The notes below the pieces were generated by a model that had not been told where the DNA came from, did no database searches, and was given only the letters and a program-made list of their open reading frames with translations. From the NCBI RefSeq assembly GCF_002075285.3, contig NZ_CP021983.2:5070001-5102000 (forward strand): a DNA stretch of 32,000 nucleotides, read 5' to 3'. The first letter of the stretch is position 1; each line of letters opens with the position of its first letter. This stretch comes from Halomicronema hongdechloris C2206 (GTDB lineage: Bacteria; Cyanobacteriota; Cyanobacteriia; Phormidesmidales; Phormidesmidaceae). Of this stretch, positions 4,660 to 27,541 are shown piece by piece. The position numbers and the translations under genes are program-made.

Positions 4660-5811
4660 TTAGCTGTTGAGTACCGCACTGGCTGCCGCCACCCCTGCCC
4701 CGGGGTTGAATTGGTCATAGCCTAGTTGCATCAGGGTGGCTTCCAAGGAACTGGTGGCGGCCAGAATGTTGCGATCGCACACAAACCCCAGATGGCCAAT
4801 CCGAAAGATCTTGCCCTTCAGATGCTCTTGCCCTCCAGCCAAGGCAATATCGAACTGTTTCTTCATCACCGAACGAATTTTCTCGGCCTCCACCTGCTGA
4901 GGGAGCACGGCCGTAATGGCCGGACTGGCCACATCATCGGGCCCCAACAACGGCAGATTCATCGCCTTCACAGCTGCTCGAGTCGCGCGCTTGTGGCGAT
5001 CATGACGGGCAAAGATGGCCTCTAAACCCTCGGCCTTCATCATGGTTAAGGCCGCTTGCAGGGCGAAGAAGAGATTCACCGGCGGCGTAAATGGCGTGGT
5101 CTGTTTGGCCGCATTCTTGCGATAGGGGCCTAAATCCAGATAATACTTCGGCAGCGTTGCCGTCTCGTAAGCCGCCCACGCCTTGGGACTCACCGACAGA
5201 AACGACAACCCCGGCGGAATCATATAGCCCTTTTGGGAACCGGAGCCTACCACATCCAGGCCCCACTCATCTACCGGCACGCTGCAAGCCCCCAGACTGG
5301 TGACGGCATCGACAATAATCAGGGCTTCGCCATGGGCTTTGACGTGGCGATTGATCGTCTTCAGATCGTTGAGCACACCAGTGGAGGTCTCGCTATGGGT
5401 GACAATCACCGCCTTAATTTGCTTTTGGGTATCGGCCTCCAAGGCCGTGCGAAAAGCCTCGGGATCCAGGGGTTTTCCCCATTCCGCCGTAATTGCCTGC
5501 ACCGCTAAGCCATAGGCTCGGGCTACCTGGGCCCAACGGTTGCCAAACTTGCCATTGTCCCCCACTAGGACCCGATCTCCCGCACTGAGGAAGTTGATGA
5601 TGCCAGCTTCCATGGCCCCGGTACCACTGGCCGTTAGAATCAGCACATCATTCTGGGTCTGGTGCAGCCACTTGAGGTTCTCAGTCGCCTCTGCCACGAT
5701 CTGGCTAAATTCACCACTGCGGTGGCCCATGGGATGCTTCGCCATCGCCAGAAGTACCTGTTCTGGAACCGGTGTAGGTCCCGGAATCATCAACATCATC
5801 TTGTCATCCAT
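4660..5811 (-). CDS. class V aminotransferase (alanine-glyoxylate / serine-pyruvate aminotransferase family)
   Basis: N-terminal MLMIPGPTPVP and the PLP-lysine context SGSQKGYMIPPGL, 383 aa. This is typical of the cyanobacterial AGXT-like protein (the 'soluble hydrogenase small subunit'). Confidence 0.9.
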   Translation of the reverse strand: MDDKMMLMIPGPTPVPEQVLLAMAKHPMGHRSGEFSQIVAEATENLKWLHQTQNDVLILTASGTGAMEAGIINFLSAGDRVLVGDNGKFGNRWAQVARAYGLAVQAITAEWGKPLDPEAFRTALEADTQKQIKAVIVTHSETSTGVLNDLKTINRHVKAHGEALIIVDAVTSLGACSVPVDEWGLDVVGSGSQKGYMIPPGLSFLSVSPKAWAAYETATLPKYYLDLGPYRKNAAKQTTPFTPPVNLFFALQAALTMMKAEGLEAIFARHDRHKRATRAAVKAMNLPLLGPDDVASPAITAVLPQQVEAEKIRSVMKKQFDIALAGGQEHLKGKIFRIGHLGFVCDRNILAATSSLEATLMQLGYDQFNPGAGVAAASAVLNS

Positions 5812-5994
5812 GGCGGTGCCTATCGGGTTTGCTTACAGTTAGGGTGCAATATTCAAGCTTACACAACATCGTCAGCAGATACATGGGTCTCTCCATTACA
5901 ATGCCAGAGCAATTGTCAGCCTGACTATGTCATGCCCCGATATTCAGGGAGTAACCCATGGCACCATAGAAAGGCCAACTGCCCAGCACTGTCG

Positions 5995-8427
5995 ATGAAA
6001 GCGGCTATTCATTCCCTGGTAGGAGTTGTTCTGAGTGTTACTAGCCTGATCCCTATGACTGCTCTGGCTCAAGAGACTTGGCAAGAGCCCCCCGACCCCA
6101 TCGCCACCATGCTGGATACCCCCTGGTATCCGGGCGTGCAGATTTCCCCCAACCATGACTGGTTGCTGCGGTTGGACCGTCCCCTGTTGCCGCGTTTAGC
6201 AGAATTAGCCCGGCCGCGGCTGCGGCTGGCAGGCCTACAGCTGAATCCAGTGACCCGGGGGCCCGCCATGCCCTATGCCTTCCAGGGGCTGGAGATCCAG
6301 AATATTGCCACCGGTGAGCGGCAATCGATTGCGTTGCCCGCCCATGACGGGCTGCGTAACCTGCGTTGGTCCCCCGAGGGCAACTACTTGGCCTTTAGCC
6401 TAGATCAGCCCACGGGGATTGAACTGTGGGTGGTGGATTTGGCCCGGGGTAAGGCCTGGCCATTGACGCCGCCGCTACTGAACAACACCTATGGCTCCCC
6501 TTGCCGCTGGATTTCGGAGACCGCCGGACTGCTGTGTAAGCTAGTACCGCCGGATCAGGGGGAGCCGCCAGTGCCAACGCCGGTGCCGCGGGGGCCACGG
6601 GTAGAGCAGAATCTGGGTCGCGAGGCGCCGGCTCGCACCTATACGAATTTGCTGGATACTCCCGATGACGAAGCCCTATTCGAATACTATCTGACCTCGG
6701 TGCTGGCCCGGGTGACCCTGAAGGGCGACCGCATCTCCCTGAGCGACACCCAGATGATTCAATCGGCGGTGCCCTCCCCAGACGGTGAGTGGATCTTGTT
6801 GACTACCATCCAACGGCCGTTTTCCTACCAGGTGCCGGCCCGCCTCTTCCCCAAGCGCCTTACCGTACTCGATAGCAGCGGCCGAGAACGCTACCATGTA
6901 GCCGATTTGCCCCTGGCCGATGACATTCCGGTCAGCTTCGACTCCGTGCGCCGAGGCCGCCGCATTGTCCATTGGCGCTCTGACCAGCCAGCCAGCCTCT
7001 ATTGGGTGGAGGCCCTAGATGGGGGCGATGCCAGCCAGGAGAGTGTCAGCCGCGATGCCGTCTGGCAATTGCCGGCCCCCTTTACTGATGAGCCCCAACG
7101 GCTCTGGACTACTGACTTGCGCTATCGCCGCATCCTTTGGGGCCATGGGACCCTGGCCTTGGCGGTGGAAACCTGGTACGACAGCCGCCGGATTCGGGTC
7201 TGGCGCTTGAATCCAGCGCAGCCACAGGCAGAGCCGGTGCTGCTGGATGATCGGGATTATCAAGACCGCTACAACGATCCAGGACAACCGATGCTGACCC
7301 CAGGCCCCTATCACCGGCGAGTGCTGATGCTGGCCCCTGATGGGGAGAGCCTCTATCTGCGCGGTCGTGGTGCCTCTCCCGAGGGCGTGTATCCCTTTCT
7401 AGACCGGTGGCATCTGCCCAGCCAGGAAAAGACGCGGCTGTGGCAAGCCGCCGATCCCTACTACGAGACGGTGGTGAGTCTGCTGAATCCCGAGGGCACC
7501 CAAATCATTACCCGGCGGGAGTCGCCCCGGGAGACGCCCAACTACTGGCGGCGCGATCTGGCCACCGGCGAGACCACGGCATTGACAGCCTTCACCGATC
7601 CGCGTCCCTGGTACCGAGATGTAGACCCAGAGGTGATTCGCTACCGACGGGCCGATGGGGTGATGCTGTCGGCTACCTTGTATTTACCGCCGGGCCATGA
7701 CCCGCTCAGGGATGGCCCGCTGCCTACAGTGCTGTGGGCCTATCCCCAGGAATATAAGAGTCGCGAGGCGGCAGCCCAGGTGACCACCGCTGAGAATGCC
7801 TTTCGTCGTCCCTATGCCTATACGCCTCTGTTTCTGCTGACCCAGGGCTATGCCGTGGTGATGGGACCGACGATGCCCATCATCGGCGAGGGGGAGACGG
7901 AACCCAATGATACCTATGTGCAACAACTGACCCAGAGTGCGGCGGCGGTGGTGGAGTATTTGGTGGATCAAGGGGTCAGTCGTCGTGATCAACTTGCGAT
8001 CGCAGGTCATTCCTACGGCGCCTTCACGGTGGCCAACCTGCTAGCCCACACCGATCTATTCCGGGCGGGCATCGCCAACAGCGGCGCCTACAACCGCACC
8101 CTCACCCCCTTCGGCTTCCAGGGAGAACAGCGCACCTTCTGGCAGGCCCCCGACGCCTACATGACCATGTCCCCCTTCACCCACGCGGCCCAGATCACCG
8201 AACCGCTGCTGTTGATCCATGGCGCCGAGGACGAAAACGTGGGCACCTACCCGATCCAGAGTGAACGGCTCTATGGGGCCATGAAAGGGCTAGGGGGCAC
8301 CGTGCGCTGGGTGGAATTGCCCCTGGAAGGCCACAGTTACGAATCTCGGGAAGCCATCGGGCACGTGCTGTGGGAGATGACCCGCTGGCTAGATCGCCAC
8401 GTCAAAGGCGAAGGCAACACTCCCTAG
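5995..8427 (+). CDS. S9 (prolyl oligopeptidase family) serine peptidase with signal peptide and N-terminal propeller
   Basis: Nucleophile motif GHSYGAF, acid in HGAEDENV and His in LEGHSYES. I set the start at ATG 5995 (MKAAIHSLVGVVLSV..ALAQE signal) because the 5662 start overlaps the antisense aminotransferase. Confidence 0.85.
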   Translation: MKAAIHSLVGVVLSVTSLIPMTALAQETWQEPPDPIATMLDTPWYPGVQISPNHDWLLRLDRPLLPRLAELARPRLRLAGLQLNPVTRGPAMPYAFQGLEIQNIATGERQSIALPAHDGLRNLRWSPEGNYLAFSLDQPTGIELWVVDLARGKAWPLTPPLLNNTYGSPCRWISETAGLLCKLVPPDQGEPPVPTPVPRGPRVEQNLGREAPARTYTNLLDTPDDEALFEYYLTSVLARVTLKGDRISLSDTQMIQSAVPSPDGEWILLTTIQRPFSYQVPARLFPKRLTVLDSSGRERYHVADLPLADDIPVSFDSVRRGRRIVHWRSDQPASLYWVEALDGGDASQESVSRDAVWQLPAPFTDEPQRLWTTDLRYRRILWGHGTLALAVETWYDSRRIRVWRLNPAQPQAEPVLLDDRDYQDRYNDPGQPMLTPGPYHRRVLMLAPDGESLYLRGRGASPEGVYPFLDRWHLPSQEKTRLWQAADPYYETVVSLLNPEGTQIITRRESPRETPNYWRRDLATGETTALTAFTDPRPWYRDVDPEVIRYRRADGVMLSATLYLPPGHDPLRDGPLPTVLWAYPQEYKSREAAAQVTTAENAFRRPYAYTPLFLLTQGYAVVMGPTMPIIGEGETEPNDTYVQQLTQSAAAVVEYLVDQGVSRRDQLAIAGHSYGAFTVANLLAHTDLFRAGIANSGAYNRTLTPFGFQGEQRTFWQAPDAYMTMSPFTHAAQITEPLLLIHGAEDENVGTYPIQSERLYGAMKGLGGTVRWVELPLEGHSYESREAIGHVLWEMTRWLDRHVKGEGNTP

Positions 8428-10243: not shown

Positions 10244-12235
10244 CTAGAGCTGAATGATAGGTGCAAAGAGGCTTTGGAGCCGTAGCAGTTGCGCCCCCCT
10301 CAGGTAGAGCAAGTCGCCTTTGCCCAGCAGGTTGACGGCTTCTCCCTGTTTACCTCCCAGGATAATGGCGGAATCGGCTGCGCTGGCGGTTCTGAGGGCA
10401 ACGCGACCGGGTAAGTTGGAGCGAATCAAGGGGGTAACTACCTTGGCATCGGGTCGTTGGGTGGCGATGATCAGATGAATACCGGCAGCGCGGGCCATGG
10501 CCCCGAGTCGTTTGATGCTTTGCTCTAGAGCCGTGCGACTGTCTTTTTCAGCCATGAAGTCTGCATATTCGTCGAATATGCAGACAATACGAGGCATAGG
10601 AGAGCTGGCTTGTTGGTTATAGCGGCTGAGGTCGGAGCAGCGATTCTGTTCGAAGCGCTGATAGCGATGGTCCATTTCGTCCATGAGGGAGTCCATCAGT
10701 GCGATCGCACCCTCGGTATTTTTAACAATGGGCTGGCGCAACCAGGGAATGGTCTCAAATTCCGGGAAGGTAACTCGCTTGGGGTCCACCAGAGCAATCT
10801 GCAACTGCTCGGGAGAATGGCGCACCAGTAGGCTGAGTAGAAGCGATCGCAAGAATTCACTCTTACCACTGCCAGTGGTGCCTCCCACCAAAAAATGGCA
10901 GGTATTGGGATCGGACAAATCAGCTTCCACTAGATTGCCTTCCAGGTTCACACCAATGGCAATCTGTACCGGAGCAGTGACGGGCAGCTTTTGGGGCGTT
11001 ATGTACTCGTTAAACTGGGCGGTTTGCCGATCGGGGTGGGGTAAATCCACACTGACATAGCCCGCCTGGGGAGCAATCATGGGCGGAGCCGTGAGACCCA
11101 ATTGCACCCGCAGATCGTCAGTTAGCCGCAGGATAGAGTTGACCTTGACCCCTAATTGAGGTTTCAATTTCACCCGCAAAAAGGCCGGGGCCAGGGCCAC
11201 CCCCTGCAGGTCTACACCCACCCCAAAGGACTCCAGGGTACGGACCAGATGGGCCGCGATGGCATCTACTTCTACAGTGGGGGACGTGGGCTTAGGCTCA
11301 GGCGGCTTCGGCCCAGGTGGCGGCGGTGGCGGTAACTGGCCTGGTTGAACCGGTGGCACTGTTGCTTGGGGCTCGAAATAGGTCTGACATTTTTTGAATT
11401 GCGGACAAATATTACAGAGCTCCAACTGCACCGCTTTCGGTGGTGGTTCCCCCTGATGGGGCTGCCAGGCTAACCAATCGCGGATTTGTTGCAACTTTTG
11501 GGGAATCAGCTGATGCACCGCCGCTTCTAACTGCTGCCAGGAATAGATCTGCTCTTGCCAGTCTGGCAGCACACTATAAACAGCAGAATCAATGGGCACA
11601 CCAATTTTTTCCCGTAGCATATAGCCATAGAGGGCTACCTGGGCCAATTGGGCCGAGGGCTCTGGCGATTGATAGGTTTTGTACTCCACCACACAGAGAC
11701 GGTGCTGCGCGAAGTCATACACCAGGCTGTCAAATTGGCCTTGCACAAGTTGATGGCTGCCATCGGGGAGGGTGAACTCATATTTGACTTTCAATTCCTG
11801 GGCTATGAAGGTCTTGGCAATCACCTCTTTTGGACTGCAGAAGCGGCGATTGCTCACCAATAGTTGCGCCCATCGCCGGATCAATCCCTGCAACCCTTGC
11901 CACAGTTGATGCAGGGCCTGGGCTTTACTAGGGTCTTCAGCAATCGCCCCCTGCAAGTAGGGAAAAAAGTGGCTCTGATAGAGCCGTTGCTGCAATTGCT
12001 GGGCAATGCCTTCAACGTCAAGGGTTTGCGCCTCTGGAGTCAAGAGATGCTGGAAGGTCGGTTCTGAGCGCAACTGCTTGACAAACTGGTCTGACAGCTG
12101 ATGAAAGATTTTGCCAATGCCTGTGGGACCTGCTGCGGGCAAAAACATGGTCATGCCACCGAAGTGATGCCCCAGATACAACAGGCGGGGACACTCAAAG
12201 GCAAGACGAATTTTACTGACACTGAGGGAAGACAT
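10244..12235 (-). CDS. Cas4-like 4Fe-4S PD-(D/E)xK nuclease fused to an FtsK/SpoIIIE-type DNA translocase motor
   Basis: N-terminal domain: SKIRLAFECPRLLYL (first Cys), QGQFDSL (Asp), VVEYKT (ExK), QVALYGYML (QxxxY) and CNICPQFKKC (Cx2Cx5C). A PPPPPPGPKPPEPKP linker follows. The FtsK alpha/beta motor has Walker A VGGTTGSGKSE, Walker B IVCIFDEYADF and IIATQRPD. I see no TM helices and no gamma domain. I set the start at ATG 12235, which overlaps the upstream stop as TAATG. Confidence 0.85.
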   Translation of the reverse strand: MSSLSVSKIRLAFECPRLLYLGHHFGGMTMFLPAAGPTGIGKIFHQLSDQFVKQLRSEPTFQHLLTPEAQTLDVEGIAQQLQQRLYQSHFFPYLQGAIAEDPSKAQALHQLWQGLQGLIRRWAQLLVSNRRFCSPKEVIAKTFIAQELKVKYEFTLPDGSHQLVQGQFDSLVYDFAQHRLCVVEYKTYQSPEPSAQLAQVALYGYMLREKIGVPIDSAVYSVLPDWQEQIYSWQQLEAAVHQLIPQKLQQIRDWLAWQPHQGEPPPKAVQLELCNICPQFKKCQTYFEPQATVPPVQPGQLPPPPPPGPKPPEPKPTSPTVEVDAIAAHLVRTLESFGVGVDLQGVALAPAFLRVKLKPQLGVKVNSILRLTDDLRVQLGLTAPPMIAPQAGYVSVDLPHPDRQTAQFNEYITPQKLPVTAPVQIAIGVNLEGNLVEADLSDPNTCHFLVGGTTGSGKSEFLRSLLLSLLVRHSPEQLQIALVDPKRVTFPEFETIPWLRQPIVKNTEGAIALMDSLMDEMDHRYQRFEQNRCSDLSRYNQQASSPMPRIVCIFDEYADFMAEKDSRTALEQSIKRLGAMARAAGIHLIIATQRPDAKVVTPLIRSNLPGRVALRTASAADSAIILGGKQGEAVNLLGKGDLLYLRGAQLLRLQSLFAPIIQL

Positions 12236-14235
12236 TAGGGAGTCACGTAGCAAATTAACTGTGCTTGACGGCTGGCACGGGGATCTAAGACTTGAATCCG
12301 ATTTTCCTGGCAAAGGGCTTCAATCACCTGATCGATCTCTTGCTCACTGAGATCTGGGAATTGCTGCTGAGTACTTTCTATCAACACCATGAGCCCAATG
12401 AAGAGTTGAGTTGTCATGAGATTGAGGACATATCGTCTCACTTCTTCTAAAGGGGGTGGCGGTGGATTACCGGTTACAAGCTGCAATTTCTGGAGTAGAG
12501 GGCATTGTTCGAGCACTTTAGATTGGCGGACAAAGGATTGCAGATCCTGGAGATGGGGAGTTTTTTGATCGATCACTAATTCGCCAGCCCGGGCCGCATT
12601 CGCGAGCTGGTGGTAGGTTTCCAGGTACTGAAGTGAGAGTAAGTCAGGCTTTATGTGGATACAGTTAGCCCGACTATCGAAGATTTGACGATAGATTTGA
12701 TGACCTTTATTCTTCGCTTGTCCTACCCCCTCTGCTCGGATCAAGAAAAGATGATCGCAGAACTGGTTGGTGACCATTTTCTGGCAGGACTTCATGATGT
12801 GATAGAAGGACTGCATGTTGGGATCTTCGCTCCAAACGATGCCAGTACGATTCGATTTTTGGTAGGACAGGGAATAGGAAGCATAGGTGCTGCTCTGAAG
12901 AAATTGAGAGGTGATTTGGGGTACTTCTAGGGCCTCGAGAGCTTGCCTAAGACGCCAGATTAGCTCGGGGGATGAGAATTGATTAATTCGCATTACCTTC
13001 TGACGGACACTCCTAAACTCTTTATCCCAGGTAAGCTGGAAACTTGCTAATTTCTGCTCGCCAGTTCCCTGTCCATTATCGCCATCACCCTTCACCTTGT
13101 CTGGCGGAAACTTAGGCATTCGGCCATGCTGTTTGTAGTAGGTAATGAGCTGTTGGCCCAGCTTAAGCACGTTACGCGGTAGGGCTTTTTCCCCTGGAAA
13201 TTGATGTTTTAACCAGTTTCGAGTCAAGGGGGCGATAGGACTTTCTGGCTCAGGTCTGGCTTGGGCATGGAGAGGAGCCAAACGGGTAGCCCATAGAGCG
13301 GCGGCCTGGTCTAAGTTGATTTGGCGAAGCTGTAAAACTTGGTTGATTCGAGCTTTGTCGGCAGGTTGAATAGTATTTCGATTGGCTTGCCAGGTACTGC
13401 TGACAACACTAATGAGCACCAAGAAATTTTTGAGATTTTCATTGTGAATGGTAGAGTTTAGGTTAAATAGGCTCTGGAGATCAGGTTTGCCGTTTGGAAG
13501 TCTTGGAATACTGTCTAAGTTGTCAAAGCAAAGTACAATGGGCTGAGTGGAATCTGCAATTCGCCCAATATTGCCCAATATTTTCTGGGCTGCATCTTCT
13601 GAGGTGATGGACTTGCGAACTTGAAGTTTCTGGAGATCTTCCTTGTCAAGATCATCCCCCTTCAGCCAGGCATAGGCCAGCATTCTAAGATCAAAATTGG
13701 TGGCCAGATCATAGAGGACGCCAAAGAATTCCTTGCCATTGTAAATGCCAGCAGGAAAACTGGCTGCCAAATCACGTACAAAAGTTCCCCTTTCTCCCAA
13801 TATCCACTTGGTAAGAGAGCGATTGCGTAAGCTAGGAAGGCTTTTTAACCACAGTAAGAGTTGAGACTCTGATTGGCCTTCTGGTACGTGAATCAGGCTG
13901 TCAATGGTGTTGCGGAGCGTGTGACGCCATAGATAGTTGCTGTCGGGCCAAGGTCCAATATAAGCAAAGAAAGCTTTGTTGTTTAGCTGACGCTTAAGGC
14001 GACCGAGTAGATAACTCTTTCCTGACCCTGATGCTCCTGCTAGGAGAATGGTCCGAGTAATGTGATCAACGGTAATTTGATTTATAGTTTGTTCAATTTC
14101 CTGGAGAATTTGCCAATGGATGGCATCAACAACCAGGTTGGGATCTTGATTTTCTTGCCAGAAGTTTCCAGGTCTAAAAGTGCTGGGATCAAAGGGGTTA
14201 AGATTTCTTTTGACTAATTGTTTGAGCGAAGTCAC
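12235..14235 (-). CDS. AAA+/STAND-like P-loop ATPase with C-terminal winged-helix-like domain (Orc1/Cdc6-like layout)
   Basis: Walker A LLAGASGSGKSYLLGRL, Walker B IVLCFDNLD and sensor-1-like LVLISVVSST, with a long helical region and a C-terminal wHTH-like tail. GTG start, 666 aa. It is noticeably more AT-rich than its neighbours. Confidence 0.8.
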   Translation of the reverse strand: MTSLKQLVKRNLNPFDPSTFRPGNFWQENQDPNLVVDAIHWQILQEIEQTINQITVDHITRTILLAGASGSGKSYLLGRLKRQLNNKAFFAYIGPWPDSNYLWRHTLRNTIDSLIHVPEGQSESQLLLWLKSLPSLRNRSLTKWILGERGTFVRDLAASFPAGIYNGKEFFGVLYDLATNFDLRMLAYAWLKGDDLDKEDLQKLQVRKSITSEDAAQKILGNIGRIADSTQPIVLCFDNLDSIPRLPNGKPDLQSLFNLNSTIHNENLKNFLVLISVVSSTWQANRNTIQPADKARINQVLQLRQINLDQAAALWATRLAPLHAQARPEPESPIAPLTRNWLKHQFPGEKALPRNVLKLGQQLITYYKQHGRMPKFPPDKVKGDGDNGQGTGEQKLASFQLTWDKEFRSVRQKVMRINQFSSPELIWRLRQALEALEVPQITSQFLQSSTYASYSLSYQKSNRTGIVWSEDPNMQSFYHIMKSCQKMVTNQFCDHLFLIRAEGVGQAKNKGHQIYRQIFDSRANCIHIKPDLLSLQYLETYHQLANAARAGELVIDQKTPHLQDLQSFVRQSKVLEQCPLLQKLQLVTGNPPPPPLEEVRRYVLNLMTTQLFIGLMVLIESTQQQFPDLSEQEIDQVIEALCQENRIQVLDPRASRQAQLICYVTP

Positions 14236-20399: not shown

Positions 20400-21741
20400 C
20401 GTCGGCAATTTTTCCAAGCCACCAACCCCGCCCGCACCCTCGATCCCGGCGATGCCGATGATCGCAGACTCTACATTGATTTCTCGGCGGTGCGGGGGGA
20501 GCAGATCATCACCGAGATCAAGGACCTAATCACCTTCTATCAACCGGATGACCCCACCTGCCCCTGTTTACGGGGCATATCGGCTGCGGCAAGTCTACGG
20601 AACTGCTGAAGCTGCGCCACGAACTAGAGGCGGAAGACTTTTATGTGGTTTATTTCGAGTCCTCAGAGGATCTGGAATGGAAATGCGATGTGGACATCGG
20701 TGATGTGCTGCTGGCCATGGCTCGTCGGCATCAGCCAGAGCCTGGAAGGGCTGAAGCTGGGGGAGGCCAAGGGGCTGCGGGGCCTGCTGCAGGGGGCAGC
20801 CAAGATCCTGATGAACGAAATTGAACTGGAAGGCTCGCCGAGTTCATGGGGGTGGGTGTCAGGCAATAGCCAGGGAGAGTTGTCCCTGTCGGCGGGCATC
20901 GGCAAGATCACCGCCCGGGCCAAGAGCGACGCCACCCTGCGGGATCGGCTGAATCAATTTCTCGGCCCCCAGAAGAACCAATTGCTGGAGGCCATCAATG
21001 AGGAGTTATTAAAACCTGCGATCGCACATCTGCTGCAGCAGGGAAAACGGGGGCCTGGTGGTAATCGTGGACAACCTGGACCGGGTCGACAATCGTCCCA
21101 AAGCCTTTGGTCGCTCCCAGCAGGAATATCTATTCATCGACCAGCACGAGTGCTTGCGCCAGCTGCACTGCCACAAGGTCTACACCATGCCCTTGGCCCT
21201 GAAATTCTCCAGTGAGTATGGCCTGCTCACGGCCCGCTACATCGAGGACCCCAAGGTGCTGCCTATGGTGCCCGTCACCCTGCGAGACGGCACCACCTGC
21301 GAAGAAGGCATGCGGCGATTGCAGCAGATGGTCCTGGCCCGGGCCATGCCCGATGTGCCGGAGGCCGAACGGTTACAGCGCCTTCCCGACCTCTTCGACT
21401 CCAGCGAGTCCCTGGTCCGGCTCTGCTCCGTCAGCGGTGGCCACGTGCGCGATCTGCTGCGGCTGCTGAACGGCTGGATCCGCAAAGGCCGCGCCTTCCC
21501 CCTGCAACGATCGAAACTGGAAGAGGTGATCCGGGCCCGCCGCAACGAAATGACCCTGCAGCTGTCGGAAGCGGAATGGGAGCTACTGCACCAAGTGCGG
21601 CAACGCAAACGAGTCGGCGGCGACCAAGACTACCAAACCCTGATCCACAGCCGTCTAGTCTTCGAGTATCGCGACCAAGGCGAATCCTGGTTTGACGTGA
21701 ATCCGATTTTGCTGGAAGCGAGGGAGTTGAGTGGCGAGTGA
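20400..21741 (+). pseudogene. P-loop ATPase (AAA/KAP-like, GCGKSTEL type) with at least 3 frameshifts and no start codon
   Basis: Pieces in three frames join into one protein: NPARTLDPGDADDRRLYIDFSAVRGEQIITEIKDLITFYQPDDPTC | LFTGHIGCGKSTELLKLRHELEAEDFYVVYFESSEDLE..DVLLAMARR | ISQSLEGLKL...AIAHLLQQGKR | LVVIVDNLDRV... to the stop at 21741. Frame changes lie near 20558-20572, 20720-20732 and 21043-21056. The first frame opens right after a TGA at 20397-20399 with no in-frame ATG, GTG or TTG. Confidence 0.7.
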
Positions 21742-21763
21742 CGAGTGACGAGTGACGAGTGGC
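21729..21763 (+). repeat. heptamer tandem array GAGTGRC x5
   Basis: Read directly. The stop codon of the ATPase pseudogene (TGA 21739-21741) lies inside the array. Confidence 0.9.
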
Positions 21764-21802
21764 AGTGGATTATCCGCCCTGCCTCATCTCCCTAACCCAA
21801 CT

Positions 21803-21844
21803 CTTCACCCTTCACTCTTCACCCTTCACCCTTCACTCCCCACC
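21803..21844 (+). repeat. heptamer tandem array CTTCACY x5 plus CCCCACC
   Basis: Read directly in the intergenic gap between 21741 and 21897. Confidence 0.9.
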
Positions 21845-21896
21845 TCCCCAGCCAAGACATCCGCTATTTTTATAGACAAGTTCCCGCCCTGCCTAC

Positions 21897-22637
21897 ATGA
21901 GTACCTCGCCCCCTACAGACACCTTTGCCTTCGGTGATGACTCGGCCCACAACCAAGCGGCCCTGGAGGAGTTGGCCAGTGCGATCGCATTTGGCCAGGG
22001 CGCCGATACGATCACCCTGTTGTTGGTGCGCTGTAACTATGGTCGGCTATGCGATCGCATGGTGGCGGCCCTGCTGACGAAGCTGGAATCGGAAGCCCTG
22101 CAAGGGGCGGTGCATGTGCTGCGGCTGCAGGCCCACGACCACAACCTCTATGGGTTAGTGCAGGCCACCACCGAAGAGCAGCGACCGGGGGCGGTGCTGG
22201 TGTTGGGCACCGAAGCCGTGGATTCCTTGGAAGTGCTGCTGGTGGAGATGAACAAGCGACGGGAGGAGTTTCGCCGCGACTTTCCCTTCCCCCTGGTGCT
22301 GTGGTTCACCGATGACGGCTATCGGCAGCTCTCCCACCATGCCAATGACTTCGAGAGCATCGCCGGCGGCGAAAACCATCGAGTTTCGTCTGGCCGGGGC
22401 GACTCTGGCCCAGCAGTTGCAGCAGGCGGCCCAGCGCATGTTTGCCGCCCTCCTGGCCCCCGATAGCCCCGAGTCCTTCAATGACCGCCTGGAAAACCTG
22501 GACCTGAGGCTCCCTGCAGCCCCAGGAAGTGGCCCTGGCCCTGGCCGATCTGCAGGCCCAAGCCTATCCCCTCGATGCTGATTTACAGGCCAGCGTGGCC
22601 TTTGCCCAGGGGCTGAAATCTGCCTAATGACGAGGCC
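21897..22637 (+). pseudogene. disrupted N-terminal module of the downstream giant nSTAND/CHAT protein
   Basis: The ORF from ATG 21897 (..LLLVRCNYGRLCDRMVAALL..FPFPLVLWFTDDGYRQLSHHANDFESIAG) continues sensibly only after a frame change near 22368-22376 (KTIEFRLAGATLAQQLQQAAQRMFAALLAPDSPESFNDRLENLDL). A second change is needed near 22500-22512 (SLQPQEVALALADLQAQAYPLDADLQASVAFAQGLKS), and a third near 22612-22622 to join NLPNDEAVALFEQS.. of the 22638 ORF. Confidence 0.6.
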
Positions 22638-25600
22638 GTGGCCCTGTTTGAGCAGAGTGCCGCCCACTGGCAGAGCCAACCCGATGCCCCCCAGGCGGCC
22701 CTGAAGCGGGGGCTGGCCCTGTTTTACCTGGGGCGAGCCCAGTACTTCATCGCCGACAACGCCAAATATCGCCAGCCGGATTGGGCCAGGGCCGTGACTC
22801 CCCTGCAGGAGTGTCTGCGGGTGTTCGACCAGGCCGGTCGACCGGATCTGGTGGCCCAGGGCATCACCCAGCTAGAGCGCACCCTGCGCCGGTTAGCGCG
22901 TTGGGATGATTTGCACGAGCTGGCCCAGCGGTCCCTGGCCCTGCACCAGACCTATGGCCCCCCCAGCAAGCTGGCCCAAGACTATGGCCATTTGGCGGCT
23001 GTGGCCCTGCAGCAACACCGCTGGCCAGCAGCGGCGGCGTATGCCCGCCAGGCCCTCGACACCCTGCCCCCCCGCCCCAGCAGCTGGCGCATTCTGTTTC
23101 TCAAGACCCTGGCCAACGCCGAGTATGCCGCGGCAGAGGTGGCCGCCGCTACAGAGCATCTGCAAGCCGCCCGGGCTCTGGGGGTGATGGAGCATCCCAA
23201 GCTCTACAGCGATGTGCTGGCCTTGCTGCAACAGTGCCTGCGAGATCAGCGGCAGTACCTAGAGGCCTTCACCATCAAGCGGCAACGGCTGGCCATCGAG
23301 AAGCAATACGGCCTGCGGGCCTTCATCGGAGCCGGTCGGTTACGGGCCCAACGCACGGAACAGCAGGCCACGGTGCGCTCAGAGCCCCAAACCCTGGAAG
23401 ACATCGCCCCGGAAATCACTGCCTCCGGCCGCTCTCGCGATCTGAACCAGCTGCTGAACCGCATCGCCGGCAAGACCCACAAGTTGCTGGTGCTCCATGG
23501 CACCTCCGGGGTGGGGAAAAGCTCTCTGGTCAATGGCGGTCTGCTACCGGCCCTGCAGGGTCGGGCCCTGGATAACCGCGACAACCTGCCGGTACTGATC
23601 CGCCAATACACCGACTGGCCCCAGGAACTAGCCACCCGCCTAGACCAAGCCCTGGCCCTGCTCCCCGCTCCCCGCCTGAGACCACAATCTCTCCCCTCCC
23701 CTGCCACCGATCCCACCCCTCGCCCCCCTGCGACGTCCCTCAGGGCAAACTCGTCACTCGCCACTCGTCACTCGTCACTGCTTACCACCCTGCGCCGGTG
23801 CGAAGCCGCCACCCTACGGCCGGTGTTCATCTTCGACCAATTCGAGGAATTCTTCTTCGCCCACAGCGATCCCCTGGCCCGCCGCGACTTCTTTCAATTC
23901 ATCGCCGACTGCCTGGAACTGCAACCCAGCGCCCTCAAGATCGTCTTGTCCCTGCGGCAGGATTACCTGCACTACCTGCTGGAGGCAAAGCAACTGGTGC
24001 GGCTGAACCAGCTAGCCGAAGGCTCCATGGCCCGCTCCCAGCTGGAAGACATCCTCGGGAAACAGGTGCTCTACGAAATCGGCAACTTTGCCCCCGCCGA
24101 TGCCAAGGCCATCATCCAGCAGCTGGCCTCGGGCTCCCGCATATTTCTGGAACCGGCCCTGATCGACGCTTTGGTGGCGGATCTGGCCGGTCCCCTGCAG
24201 GAGGTACGCCCCATCGAGATGCAGATCGTCGGGGCCCAGCTGCAGACGGAGGGCATCCAGACCCTGGACCAGTATCGCCACCTGGGGGAGCAGCCCAAGG
24301 AGACCCTGGTGCAGCGCTACCTGGAAGACGTGGTCATCGACTGCGGCGAAGAAAATCGCCAGCTGGCGGAGTTGGTGCTGTTTCTGCTCACCGACGAACG
24401 CGGCACCAGACCCCTGAAGACCAAACCGGAACTGCTGCGGGACTTGGGAGCCTTGGGCATCCCCATCACCCCATCACCCCTAAGCCCTCCGGGCAGGCTC
24501 CGCCAACACCCCATTACCCCATCACCCCCCCACCCCATCACTCCCCCACCTGCGACGAATGCCCAAGACGACAACCTGGATCTAGTACTGCGTATCCTCT
24601 GCGGCTCCGGCATCGGCATTCACTTGCCCGATAGCCCGGATGATCGCTATCAGCTGGTCCATGATTATCTGGCTGGGGTGATTCGAGAGCATCAAGCCCC
24701 TCGATTAGAGGCGCTGATGGCAGAACTGGAGGAAGAGAAGCGCAGACGGCTGGAAGCAGAATCTGAAACGTTGGTGCTGACAGAAGCCAACCGCAAGGCA
24801 AGACGACGACTGTTCTGGAGTTCAGGATTGCTAGCCGCTTCCCTGGTTGCAGCTCTGCTAGCAGGTACTTTTGCAGGTACTGCAACTAATAAAGCTAATC
24901 GAGCAGAACAGGAACTTATCGCCAAGGAACAATCGGCTCAAGATGCTGAGATAAGAGAACGAGAAGCAAGAGCAGAACTAGAACAAGCCGAAGCCGAAGC
25001 CCAACAAGCTGCCAGAGATCTGACACGACTAGAAACTCAAGCAAAGATTTCTGAGCAAGAAATTGAAGCAGCTAGGATTCAGTTTGCTCAGCTTGAGCAG
25101 AAAGCTGCGACAACTCAGCGAAAAAATCAAGAAATCCAGGAAGACTTAAATAGGGCTACATCAGCCATTCAAGAGATAGAAAGTGAGCGGGAGAGATTAA
25201 TACAAGAGCAAGAAGCTCTTATTAAGCGTGAAAGACAGATTCGCAATGATCTTAACATCTCGCAGGAGGAGCTAGAGTCTATTCAAAATGAGCTGTCTAG
25301 TAGTCGGTTTCAGTTAGAGGAGATAGAAAATGACTTGGTTGCCAATATATCTGAGGTCTTAAAACTCACCAGAGAGCAAACTAGTCATGAGGTTACGCCA
25401 GCAATTCTCTATGTGAACTTTGCACCTAAAAAGGACTTCCCGCAAGGAGATGAGGACTATAGTTTAACACTTTGGCTGATCACTTATGATGGTCAATCTA
25501 TCAAGGAAAACATTGATTCAGTGACTCAAGAAAAAGTCCTTTTGGCCATTGACAATATTCAACGAGGATATCGAAGGCGTGACTTAAAGGTCCTAGAAGA

Positions 25601-26492
25601 TCTATACGAATGGATGATCGATCCTATTGAGGGCAACCTAAGGGATTTAAATATAAACAATATAGTTTTTCTGATGGACAAGAGTATAAGAGGAAGGATT
25701 CCAATAGCAGCACTCTATGATGGAGAGAAATTTTTCGTTCAAAAATATAGTTTTGGATTGATGCCAGGATTGACTTTGTCTGACGCTAGATATGTCGACT
25801 TAAGACAATCTGGCTTACTTCTAATAGGCATAGATGCTTTTGATGAATATCCAGAGCTAGCTTTAGGTCCAATACCATATGTCAACTTAGAAATCGATAG
25901 ATTGTCAGAGATTTGGGTGGACAAGACAGTCCTGCGAGATCAAGATGCTAACTATCCTAATGTTCTGAGTGTTAGAAGGCGCAAGAATCACCAAATAGTG
26001 CATATTGCTACCCACGGAGGATCTCTGGCGAATCGAGACAATTTACCTCAACTGGTTCTATGGGATAGAATTCTGACTCCACAAGATATATCTCCCCAGG
26101 ACTGGTATAGTCCACCAGTTGACCTATTAGTATTGAGCACCGGAGAATTGGGTCTTGAAAGAGGAGAATATAAATTTGGAATCGCAGGTGCTTTTCTCAA
26201 TGCAGGTGTCAAATCAGTTATCGCAGACTTGTTCTATTCAAGTGATTCTCTATATCCCGAATTAATGGCAAGATTTTATCAAAATCTACAAGTAGCCCCA
26301 ATCAGGGCTGAAGCCCTGCGAAGAGCTCAATTGTTCCTTCTTAGAGAATTTTTAAATGAAAAAGTTGAGTACGAAAGAGAATACAATAAGGGTTCTTTTA
26401 CTATAGAAGAAAGTTTAACAGTCGAAGAAAGTGATATTAGAAATATTGAGGCTTGGGGTGCGGGAATTACAATCATTGGAAATCCTTGGTAA
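22638..26492 (+). CDS. large multidomain protein: TPR-like helical region, nSTAND-type P-loop NTPase, Pro-rich linkers, one TM helix, ~170-aa coiled coil, CHAT (caspase-like) domain lacking the catalytic Cys
   Basis: 1284-aa open frame. Walker A LVLHGTSGVGKSSLVNGGLLPAL (about 23509-23532) and Walker B VFIFDQFEEFF. TM segment LFWSSGLLAASLVAALLAGTFAGTA (about 24810-24884), then an E/Q/R-rich heptad-like stretch. The CHAT-like C-terminus has VHIATHG (His codon 26013-26015), but LLVLSTGELG sits where CHAT domains have LSAC (Gly codon 26142-26144). Confidence 0.8.
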   Translation: MALFEQSAAHWQSQPDAPQAALKRGLALFYLGRAQYFIADNAKYRQPDWARAVTPLQECLRVFDQAGRPDLVAQGITQLERTLRRLARWDDLHELAQRSLALHQTYGPPSKLAQDYGHLAAVALQQHRWPAAAAYARQALDTLPPRPSSWRILFLKTLANAEYAAAEVAAATEHLQAARALGVMEHPKLYSDVLALLQQCLRDQRQYLEAFTIKRQRLAIEKQYGLRAFIGAGRLRAQRTEQQATVRSEPQTLEDIAPEITASGRSRDLNQLLNRIAGKTHKLLVLHGTSGVGKSSLVNGGLLPALQGRALDNRDNLPVLIRQYTDWPQELATRLDQALALLPAPRLRPQSLPSPATDPTPRPPATSLRANSSLATRHSSLLTTLRRCEAATLRPVFIFDQFEEFFFAHSDPLARRDFFQFIADCLELQPSALKIVLSLRQDYLHYLLEAKQLVRLNQLAEGSMARSQLEDILGKQVLYEIGNFAPADAKAIIQQLASGSRIFLEPALIDALVADLAGPLQEVRPIEMQIVGAQLQTEGIQTLDQYRHLGEQPKETLVQRYLEDVVIDCGEENRQLAELVLFLLTDERGTRPLKTKPELLRDLGALGIPITPSPLSPPGRLRQHPITPSPPHPITPPPATNAQDDNLDLVLRILCGSGIGIHLPDSPDDRYQLVHDYLAGVIREHQAPRLEALMAELEEEKRRRLEAESETLVLTEANRKARRRLFWSSGLLAASLVAALLAGTFAGTATNKANRAEQELIAKEQSAQDAEIREREARAELEQAEAEAQQAARDLTRLETQAKISEQEIEAARIQFAQLEQKAATTQRKNQEIQEDLNRATSAIQEIESERERLIQEQEALIKRERQIRNDLNISQEELESIQNELSSSRFQLEEIENDLVANISEVLKLTREQTSHEVTPAILYVNFAPKKDFPQGDEDYSLTLWLITYDGQSIKENIDSVTQEKVLLAIDNIQRGYRRRDLKVLEDLYEWMIDPIEGNLRDLNINNIVFLMDKSIRGRIPIAALYDGEKFFVQKYSFGLMPGLTLSDARYVDLRQSGLLLIGIDAFDEYPELALGPIPYVNLEIDRLSEIWVDKTVLRDQDANYPNVLSVRRRKNHQIVHIATHGGSLANRDNLPQLVLWDRILTPQDISPQDWYSPPVDLLVLSTGELGLERGEYKFGIAGAFLNAGVKSVIADLFYSSDSLYPELMARFYQNLQVAPIRAEALRRAQLFLLREFLNEKVEYEREYNKGSFTIEESLTVEESDIRNIEAWGAGITIIGNPW
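23751..23778 (+). repeat. heptamer array TCGTCAC x4 (reverse complement of the GAGTGAC arrays) inside the CDS
   Basis: Read directly. It is translated as SSLATRHSSL within a Pro/Ser-rich linker. Confidence 0.9.
24461..24550 (+). repeat. octamer arrays CCCCATCA / CCCCATTA / CCCCCACC inside the CDS
   Basis: Read directly in two blocks (24461-24480 and 24509-24550). They encode PITPSP...HPITPSPPHPITPPP. The complement GGGGTGAT occurs at 28840-28859 and related units at 581-640. Confidence 0.85.
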
Positions 26493-26618
26493 ATATTGTT
26501 TCTTAAGCTTTCAATCCTATCAACAGACACCCTATCTGTCCGGATCATCTCGGAGTATTGAGTGATTTGACCCTCTGTACAGGACAAAAGCTTGAAGGGT
26601 AGATAGGAAAAGGGTTTC

Positions 26619-26798
26619 ATGGAATTGCGAAAGACTAACGAAACCCTTATGGAACAGGTTACTCTACTGCGCGATACCCTGCGGAGTCATCTCAACTGGC
26701 ACGGGGTTCACTTCACTGCTAGCCCGCAGTTGCAACTGGCTGCGCGATTACCTCATCCACAGCCCCGATGTCAGCGATGCCGATCGTGCCCTCTGTGA
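26619..26798 (+). mobile_element. possible remnant of an IS4-like transposase N-terminus (59-codon ORF)
   Basis: MELRKTNETLMEQVTLLRDTLRSHLNWHG... resembles, from memory, the N-termini of cyanobacterial IS4-family transposases. The remainder (..RLPHPQPRCQRCRSCPL) looks like nonsense. I see no inverted repeats and no DDE region. Confidence 0.25.
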
Positions 26799-27223
26799 TA
26801 TCCCACCCCGGGGTGGTGAGTAACGAGCTTGCCCTGAGCGCAGTCGAAGGGTAAAGAGCCTGTCCTGTAAGGCTTTCAGCCAGGCTCCGCCAAGCGCGTC
26901 AGCGGCTCCGCAGGAGCAACGTAGTCGTTTCGCCAAGCGACATGAACGGCTTTACCTGCCCGGAGGGAATAGGGTGGCGAGTAAAGAGTGATACCAATTC
27001 TCCAACAACTGACTACACATGATCTCCCGTAGGGGCGCACAGCCGTGCGCCCAGCGCAATATCTCGGTATAAGCACAGACCGAGGCATTCTCGTTGGCGA
27101 TAGCCTGCCTTTGGCATCGGGTAACGCGACCATGACTGCTGGTGGAGCTTCAAAGCTGGGTTTGCATCACAGAGAGTCAGGCGAGATGGCCGCAAAAACT
27201 CCATAGCTTCCCATCTCTAACTA

Positions 27224-27541
27224 TCACACTGCTATTTTTAGTGGGCGCCCTGTCATGTTGAGCTGGCCCCCATAGAGTTTTCTCTGGGCCGCAGTCATTT
27301 CTCTGTGGTACTCCTCTATTTCGGGGCGATCCCCATAGAGTTTTCTTTGGGCCGCAACGATTTCTTTGCGGTACTTATCTATAGCTGAGCGGTCCCCAGT
27401 CATTTCTGACCGGTCCCCATAGATTCCCGTCTGGGCCGCAACAATTTTCATCCGGTGCTTCTCTATGGTTGAGCGGGCCTCGATCAAATTTACTGCAATC
27501 CCTAGCTGACCAAGGCAGGCCATAGATAGCGTCCATAACAA
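27224..27541 (-). CDS. questionable ORF encoding 21-aa repeats (GDRxxIxxYxxxxxAAQRKLYG)
   Basis: 105-aa ORF that stays open through the 63-bp tandem repeat. The unit lengths (63, 63, 21, 63 nt) are all multiples of 3. No known family and no clear RBS. Confidence 0.3.
   Translation of the reverse strand: MLWTLSMACLGQLGIAVNLIEARSTIEKHRMKIVAAQTGIYGDRSEMTGDRSAIDKYRKEIVAAQRKLYGDRPEIEEYHREMTAAQRKLYGGQLNMTGRPLKIAV
27268..27477. repeat. tandem repeat, 63-bp unit x3 plus a 21-bp partial unit
   Basis: Units at 27268-27330, 27331-27393, 27394-27414 (partial) and 27415-27477, each beginning CCCCATAGA (the partial unit begins CCCCAGT). Units 1 and 2 are about 75-80% identical by eye, and unit 3 is more diverged. 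Confidence 0.85.

Follow-up and report, generated by a model that had tools for sequence, protein, structure and literature searches.

Does a gene whose base composition breaks abruptly within one reading frame record an exchange of its 3′ part, and if so, what was exchanged? The question is raised by an open reading frame (ORF) in a 32,000-nucleotide stretch of the Halomicronema hongdechloris C2206 genome (contig NZ_CP021983.2, positions 5,070,001 to 5,102,000), the whole of which is called the window here. The ORF, at window positions 22638-26492, encodes a protein with an nSTAND1 nucleoside triphosphatase (NTPase) domain in its first half and a CHAT domain near its end. Pfam gives nSTAND1/AAA and CHAT only, with no match to WD40 repeats in the ORF (Table 1). 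A preliminary description of the window took the coiled-coil and CHAT half to be grafted from a low-GC donor onto a resident NTPase half as an effector-domain swap. We conclude that the gene is very probably a recent recombinant into which a low-GC segment was grafted by recombination.

The entire GC drop lies within this single open frame of 1284 codons, which starts with GTG. In 200-nucleotide (nt) windows, the GC content is 0.60-0.70 across 22000-24600, falls to 0.52 at 24700-24899 and 0.47 at 24900-25099, stays at 0.35-0.45 up to about 26600, and is back at 0.53-0.61 by 26700. The GC content at third codon positions (GC3) is 0.78 ahead of codon 674 and 0.33 behind it. The maximum-likelihood change point for GC3 is at 24627-24681 with a log-likelihood ratio (LLR) of 141, as compared with maxima of 8.9 in permuted data and 13.2 in the 15 other long ORFs of the window. 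The tetranucleotide distance to the remaining window is highest at 24601-26400, over the low-GC part. The GC windows, the downward step of GC3, its LLR, and the tetranucleotide profile all agree with the abrupt break within one ORF that had been noticed from the letters.

The amino acid composition of the coiled coil should be considered, since it could give such a break by itself. However, when GC3 is predicted from the residues with the codon usage of the window, it is flat at 0.60-0.69 (about 0.63) along the ORF, and all amino acid classes change their codon choice (for example, Ala from 0.89 to 0.28, Gly from 0.79 to 0.12, Ser from 0.71 to 0.10, and Thr from 0.85 to 0.18). Amino acid composition is ruled out as the source by this expected-GC3 test and the per-residue codon tables. 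Because the expected GC3 is flat and every class is shifted, the break in GC and GC3 is real and large and is no by-product of coiled-coil composition.

The cumulative codon-usage LLR resolves the upstream joint. The codon usage is of host type up to 24680, forms a mixed plateau at 24680-24797, and is of donor type from about 24798. The break had been placed at the junction of the transmembrane (TM) helix and the coiled coil. The predicted helix does lie just past the crossover interval, but the crossover itself would fall upstream of it, in the junction motif. The TM helix and coiled coil are not a novel joint either, since the WD40-type relatives described below also have both. The HIP1 sites, thought to occur only upstream, are partly as described: the nearest exact sites (21981 and 22051) are upstream, whereas none is found anywhere in the 1284-codon ORF. 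The claim that GC-rich repeat units are likewise confined to the upstream part holds only loosely, through an octamer array (CCCCATCA, period 8) at 24461-24552, which lies just before the break and encodes repeats of the HPITPSP type in frame. A 26-nt element (TAAGCCCTCCGGGCAGGCTCCGCCAA) that splits the array recurs downstream in direct and inverted copies (26868-26893 and 26955-26974). Two relatives of the N-terminal half, P0002 and P0006, hold different short-repeat insertions in the same linker. The insertions are at the equivalent site, and therefore the linker tolerates small mobile repeats.

At the downstream side, the change point of the low-GC block is at 26621-26682. The block contains the TM helix, the coiled coil, the CHAT-like domain, the stop codon, and a short 3′ untranslated stretch. 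Past the CHAT stop codon lies a fragment of an IS4-family insertion sequence (IS), which consists of a left end of about 90 nt and the start of the transposase, cut where ARLSF is expected next. Over 119 nt, this fragment shares 75% of its nucleotides with an IS relic carried by the Calothrix PCC 6303 plasmid pCAL6303.01 (L087, 2493-2618). The fragment sits between the CHAT stop codon and a short coding relic of host-like GC. tblastn pairs the relic with the final 34 residues encoded by the WD40 genes behind the L004 and L002 homologues of the gene (E values of 1.7e-7 and 9e-6, respectively), with the stop codons aligned. The relic thus appears to be the original 3′ end of the gene. Scans for terminators, promoters, and repeats near the 3′ joint did not mark out the boundary; a 14-nt near-repeat at the joint (26667 and 26740) was judged to be a chance occurrence.

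The two halves also differ in their relatives. Residues 1-700 are 57-67% identical over the full length to P0001-P0006, and for the N half the figure is 62-67% over 100% of its length. These relatives likewise possess the junction motif, the TM helix, and the coiled coil. P0001 and P0005 run on into WD40 repeats, the repeats are encoded by separate downstream genes in L002 and L004, and P0327 (1701 amino acids (aa)) is a full-length form. Among the 120 N-half matches listed, none has a CHAT domain, and the C-terminal domains found there are WD40 and sometimes cyclase, GGDEF, or histidine kinase. Residues 741-1284 reached only 37% identity in the corresponding homologue search. An exhaustive scan with residues 860-1284 against 1.84 billion representative proteins gave the protein itself, then one 282-aa fragment at 57%, and all others at 40% or less. 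The N-termini of the C-half relatives are of several kinds (TIR, AAA_35, TPS, and nSTAND1). Compared separately, the halves have different nearest relatives, P0001-P0006 for one and the 57% fragment for the other. This difference, together with the WD40-type relic and its stop codon directly after the foreign block, upholds the proposal of a low-GC graft onto a host-like gene.

The front part has the features of the TPR-nSTAND1-TM-coiled-coil-WD40 subfamily to which P0001-P0006 and P0327 belong: the N-terminal domain, the junction motif, the TM helix, and an upstream KAP-like ATPase partner are all present. Here the N-terminal domain and the partner gene are frameshifted, and the C-terminal WD40 propellers are missing except for the 35-codon relic. 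Both Walker motifs are intact and are invariant or nearly so in an alignment of 30 members.

CHAT-type members of the family provide a candidate for the other parent. In P0193, Pfam detects both nSTAND1 and CHAT, and L008, a complete protein of 1521 aa, can be aligned collinearly with the window protein (39.5% identity). The nSTAND1-TM-coiled-coil-CHAT architecture is thus found elsewhere too. The alignment of the window protein with P0193 runs through the TM helix without a gap, whereas the WD40-type proteins have 15 extra residues there. Judging from this alignment, the window protein has the CHAT-type layout past the junction motif, and the donor was probably a family member of CHAT type. 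A scan of genome contigs with the C half gave no donor or source locus, and an exact 24-mer from the IS fragment had no match, with no identical IS copy in the genome collection. When the cassette was compared with plasmids by blastn, the matches were limited to the IS left end on the Calothrix plasmid and a 56-nt stretch.

One of the closest C-half relatives, P0121, lies in L001 (7297-12886), where an inserted IS (DDE_3 and HTH) parts this CHAT gene from an AAA_35 NTPase gene, and an IS4/ISAs1-type transposase comes after it. P0121 and P0113 (nSTAND1) were considered as neighbors or a split fusion on a 760-kb contig, but P0121 really follows the IS-interrupted AAA_35 gene. CHAT modules of the P0121 clade often adjoin IS elements.

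The gene is longer at its 5′ end than annotated, and its true start is the ATG at 21897. The upstream part is broken by three +1 insertions of A at about 22372, 22507, and 22618, so that the frame passes through 1, 2, 3, and then 1 again. The AlphaFold2 (AF2) model of the N-terminal domain (predicted local distance difference test (pLDDT) of 85) has a Walker-less AAA+/ORC-like α/β fold; its Foldseek matches are weak (E value of about 1e-3), too little to name it. The partner ATPase, whose family was assigned by Pfam on the L004 orthologue, is the conserved upstream neighbor of the family and is syntenic in L002, L003, and L004. In tblastn it shows 56-85% identity over two frames and an out-of-frame stretch. 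It is broken by at least three single-base indels (20562, 20727, and 21054). Across the loci examined, this two-gene module has no shared neighbors.

There are thus at least six single-base frame-breaking indels in 2.2 kb (20403-22637), while the next 3.85 kb has no frameshift and the other Pfam-checked genes of the window match their models over the full length. No nonsense substitutions accompany the six or more indels, several of which are in short homopolymers; the indels fit 454/PacBio error as well as very recent decay. In the case of error, the gene would be intact with about 1530 aa, next to an intact partner ATPase gene. The copy in H. hongdechloris C2206 may be inactive, because the 5′ domain and the partner ATPase gene are frameshifted. 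No entry for WP_088431189.1 is found in the proteomics supplements of the genome paper.

Table 1. Features of the recombinant gene and its surroundings (window positions; residues are numbered from the annotated GTG start)
Feature	Position	Strand	Basis or remark
Partner gene, KAP/ATPase_2-like P-loop ATPase, ~455 aa	20403-21735	+	tblastn with the syntenic L002, L003, and L004 genes
True 5′ part, N-terminal domain of ~240 aa common to all close relatives	21897-22637	+	tblastn of P0001 and P0002
Annotated ORF, 1284 aa	22638-26492	+	ASC73871.1 / WP_088431189.1, Halomicronema hongdechloris C2206
nSTAND1 NTPase domain, residues 264-588	23427-24401	+	Pfam PF20703, 90.6 bits (cut-off 27.1)
Walker A, GTSGVGKS	23499-23522	+	Sequence motif
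Walker-B-like, VFIFDQFEE	23823-23849	+	Sequence motif
Pro-rich linker with in-frame octamer repeat array split by a 26-nt element	24459-24557	+	Repeat analysis
Junction motif, LDLVLRILCGSGI...DDRYQLVHDYLAGVIR..APRLE.LMAELEEEKR	24576-24749	+	Conserved in WD40-type and CHAT-type members
Putative 5′ crossover interval	24680-24800	+	Codon-usage LLR
Low-GC cassette, very probably foreign	24800-26555	+	GC ~0.40, GC3 ~0.30
Predicted single TM helix, SGLLAASLVAALLAGTFAGTA, residues 729-749	24822-24884	+	Hydrophobic 21-mer after the basic cluster KARRR
Coiled-coil stalk rich in E, Q, K, and A, ~residues 751-925 (~175 residues)	24888-25412	+	Sequence
CHAT domain, residues 984-1238	25587-26351	+	Pfam PF12770, 125 bits (cut-off 24)
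IS4-family fragment, left end and first 19 transposase codons (MEQVTLLRDTLRSHLNWHG, from 26649)	26556-26705	+	tblastn to cyanobacterial IS4 transposase N-termini
Probable relic of the original 3′ end, last 35 codons and stop of a WD40-type tail (LLARSCNWLRDYLIHSPDVSDADRALCDIPPRGGE, then stop)	26716-26823	+	Host-like GC; tblastn

The following course of events would account for these observations. The ancestor would have been a cyanobacterial membrane-spanning STAND NTPase ending in WD40 repeats, with the layout of the family (a Walker-less P-loop-like N-terminal domain, TPR-like helices, nSTAND1, the junction motif, TM helix, coiled-coil stalk, and a variable C-terminal module). Low-GC cyanobacterial DNA would have come in, carrying the 3′ part of a CHAT-type family member followed by an IS4 element. 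The 5′ crossover would have taken place in the junction motif common to both parents, preserving the frame, and the 3′ joint would have been illegitimate, formed within the transposase start at about 26705-26715. That joint would have removed the old tail save for its last 35 codons, so that a foreign segment of about 1.9 kb took the place of the coiled-coil and WD40 part. The donor-like codon usage is undrifted, and the relic is about as similar to L004 as the N half is (56% and 57% identity, respectively), which suggests that the event is recent; with 34 residues, the similarity of the relic is a weak clock.

This course has to be weighed against others. That no transfer took place, and that AT-rich codon usage is intrinsic to the coiled coil and CHAT or comes from a local mutation or expression bias, is hardly credible. 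GC3 also drops past the junction motif in close homologues, and coiled coils are rich in E, K, and Q, the residues that shift codon use least across this ORF. However, the idea is contradicted by the flat amino-acid-expected GC3, the four-fold degenerate classes shift most, and the CHAT domain equals the coiled coil in AT-richness. The break is moreover reversed, from low to high, in other family members, and the non-coding sequence from 26492 to about 26600 is low in GC as well. A transfer in the reversed direction, with the low-GC CHAT tail as the older resident and the high-GC NTPase front brought in, is very improbable but deserves comparison. The host genes of L002 have GC3 of 0.35-0.45, as compared with 0.75-0.85 in its nSTAND1 region, so that the front is what deviates there, and the N half in the window also exceeds the local GC3 mean. 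In H. hongdechloris, on the other hand, the genome is 54.6% GC according to the genome paper, and the window genes have GC3 of 0.47-0.79 (0.65 on average), which leaves the tail, at 0.30, as the outlier. Only a WD40 tail that came first would account for the high-GC WD40-type relic past the CHAT stop codon.

The 5′ joint lies in the family's most conserved motif, where assemblers can cross over, and the genome paper tells of many chimeric PacBio reads and manual contig joining in an early hybrid assembly from 454, 36-bp Solexa mate pairs, and PacBio. A contaminant or paralogue block might accordingly have been stitched in at a conserved stretch, and the indels in the upstream 2.2 kb could mark a poorly supported stretch. 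We consider such an artefact improbable, since it needs two misjoins 1.9 kb apart, the first in frame and the second hitting an IS fragment and landing on the last 35 codons of the same ancestral gene. The ORF is open over all 1284 codons amid genes that are intact in the Pfam check, and comparable breaks are found in independent assemblies, one of them on a 3.9-Mb contig. Insertion of an island with a separate TM-coiled-coil-CHAT gene, followed by an in-frame fusing deletion with no homologous crossover, is also unlikely. The IS4 fragment at the 3′ joint would suit it, as would P0121, the nearest CHAT relative of known context, which is IS-flanked and IS-split from its AAA_35 partner. The 5′ joint is seamless inside a motif of both parental types, however, and its mixed codon usage of about 120 nt is as homologous exchange would give; an in-frame, motif-preserving fusion by random deletion is hardly to be expected.

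Several points weigh against the recent graft that we prefer. The assembly is an early hybrid with chimeric reads, the indels lie just upstream of the ORF, and the local quality can be judged only from the reads. No donor or near-identical relative of the cassette was found, nor a related strain showing the locus before the swap, and thus direction and timing rest on composition and the relic. The term "resident" for the NTPase half is also only relative. This half is host-like, but it belongs to a 5′-frameshifted two-gene module with a GC3 of 0.80, above the window average, and the whole module may be an earlier import. The membrane topology and the lost protease activity considered next are predictions only.

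The position and the active site of the CHAT domain should be noted, since they bear on what the swap changed. The topology of the TM helix is predicted to be N-in/C-out, because the KARRR cluster precedes the helix. The AF2 model of residues 975-1284 (pLDDT of 85; predicted template modelling score of 0.86) matches the CHAT domains of Csx29, separase, DdvA (rank 18), and SAVED-CHAT, and also caspases; a sequence search of solved structures with the CHAT region gave nothing useful. The His motif HIATHGG is kept (residues 1122-1128, 26001-26021), whereas Gly1169 occupies the column of the catalytic Cys in the SAC motif (LLVLSTGELG, 26124-26153). Both His and Cys are kept in 138 of 154 related CHAT domains. 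The 16 that deviate cluster among the nearest relatives and the TM/coiled-coil forms, and L008 lacks both residues. With the Cys absent, the domain is therefore not to be filed as an active protease.

L074, a family member, carries CHASE2 behind the junction where the window protein has CHAT, and CHASE2 is an extracytoplasmic sensor domain. The CHAT fold is thus predicted to lie in a sensor-type position, where relatives have WD40 or CHASE2. What was exchanged is most likely a CHAT-fold module without catalytic activity that sits outside the cytoplasm on a coiled-coil stalk, and the swap most likely altered a sensor or interaction module and did not add a protease effector. The term "effector-domain swap" is accordingly doubtful, given the Gly in place of the catalytic Cys and the location of the domain beyond the predicted helix.

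If the junction motif is a preferred place of exchange, similar breaks should be seen in other family members. We fetched 80 metagenome loci with the motif and added L002-L004 and the window, which gave 45 non-redundant loci with enough sequence on both sides. With raw GC3 (|z| > 4), a break was found at the junction in seven loci and at a control boundary inside the N half in none. With amino-acid-controlled GC3 (|z| > 5), the numbers were 13/45 and 1/45, respectively. The largest break is that of the window (z = -20.8), followed by L032 (z = -19.1). Change points lie at the junction motif, from -56 to +74 codons, in seven loci (the window, L032, L007, L035, L002, L008, and L074), all within ORFs of 1200-1800 codons. 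In L032 (6241-8853), GC3 falls from 0.69 to 0.30 with an LLR of 138, 18 codons past the YQLVHDY motif. A second group (L061, L063, L055, L045, and L046) has breaks at +127 to +187 codons, at the start of the WD40 array, all from low to high GC3; this group may have another cause, such as homogenisation of WD40 repeats. The breaks of L007 (2721-5486), L032, and L061 (6244-8742) are nearly as strong as that of the window, and all three have WD40 tails. The modules behind the junction in the loci with breaks include WD40, CHAT (L008), and CHASE2 (L074). Most of the loci come from metagenome contigs, and such contigs may be chimeras joined at conserved sequence.

These breaks raise the possibility, which we consider doubtful at present, that the junction motif LDLVL..GSGI..DRYQLVHDYLA..IR is a standing cassette-exchange site for extracytoplasmic modules (WD40, CHAT-like, and CHASE2) between cyanobacteria of very different GC. 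Tentatively, such a site would amount to a C-terminal displacement system for receptor-like NTPases, with the H. hongdechloris gene as its freshest example.

Displacement of C-terminal parts is found in CdiA toxins. Likewise, in rhs genes, laterally acquired C-terminal tips recombine at the end of the conserved core, and earlier tips remain further downstream (Jackson et al. 2009, PMC2935791). The present locus resembles rhs displacement in its break at a conserved motif at the core end, the change of composition, the remnant of the old tip downstream, and the anchoring by core homology. It differs in that it has no YD repeats, toxin, or immunity gene; a STAND NTPase forms its core, and what varies is a TM-stalk-sensor-like module. 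Here the old tip has for the most part been lost by deletion instead of moving as a whole, and an IS4 fragment forms the 3′ joint. The locus works like an rhs-type displacement but is not a member of the rhs family.

NTPases of the nSTAND1 conflict systems, described for multicellular bacteria and typical of multicellular cyanobacteria, have a modular build (Kaur et al. 2021, PMC8195603), and nSTAND1 sensors targeted by DGRs (diversity-generating retroelements) have been described (PMC10907252). The window protein shares with them the nSTAND1 center, the modularity, and the variable terminal domains, which include WD40, TPR, and CHAT. In the described systems, CHAT or caspase effectors are N-terminal and the sensor is C-terminal, whereas CHAT is here C-terminal, behind a TM helix, and lacks the cysteine. 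No effector-associated domain was detected in the window protein. PADLOC gave only weak SMC-like coiled-coil matches to it (LmuB and JetC, residues 751-919), with no defence model beyond this coiled-coil noise, and none for P0327.

DdvA, which matches the CHAT model structurally, offers a precedent for the layout predicted here, as its CHAT fold is extracytoplasmic behind one TM helix and has a proposed sensing role. DdvA has a His-Cys dyad and a zinc-finger anti-sigma N-terminus and no NTPase, whereas the present protein has a STAND NTPase and a long coiled coil and has lost the Cys. As to the process, homology-facilitated illegitimate recombination in naturally transformable bacteria replaces a resident segment by DNA that is homology-anchored at one end and illegitimately joined at the other. 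The 5′ joint in a common motif and the 3′ joint in an IS fragment would fit this type of event.

Other features of the window were observed. An SspH-like protein (FtsK/HerA-type ATPase and Cas4-like PD-(D/E)XK nuclease; PADLOC E value of 3e-67) is encoded at 10244-14235 on the minus strand and adjoins a gene for a 666-aa AAA_16 protein; the stretch that contains the two is lower in GC (about 0.47). The window resembles a defence-island neighborhood. The non-coding part at 26820-27200 contains several GC-rich short repeats and hairpin-like sequences, such as GGGCGCACAGCCGTGCGCCC; GC-rich short repeats are a frequent feature of intergenic DNA in filamentous cyanobacteria. At 27255-27485, a 63/84-nt unit is present three times in tandem (73% identity), inside a minus-strand ORF (27224-27541, 105 aa) with a repeated peptide (AAQRKLYGDRPEIE...) and no Pfam match. 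A modest GC3 step from 0.51 to 0.73 (LLR of 13, codon 141) occurs in ORF 5662-8427 (921 codons, peptidase S9 domain). This ORF overlaps the minus-strand aminotransferase gene at 4660-5811, and its true start is probably further downstream.

For annotation, caution is needed: the product is called "CHAT domain-containing protein", yet the catalytic cysteine is absent, and the first 240 residues proper to the protein are probably missing. The gene is a clear example of a known process that forms mosaic genes and is conceptually ordinary, and module swapping seems to recur in the family. Swaps of terminal modules are well known in toxins and defence proteins, and in most cases they are deduced from trees, a long time after they took place. 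Here, one locus still shows the traces as undrifted donor codons, a crossover in a common motif, an IS fragment, and the stump of the old tail with its stop codon. The locus therefore lends itself well as a worked example of C-terminal module change in bacterial NLR-like (STAND) proteins. If the pattern holds in isolate genomes, it would point to recombination-driven diversification of receptor modules in multicellular cyanobacteria.

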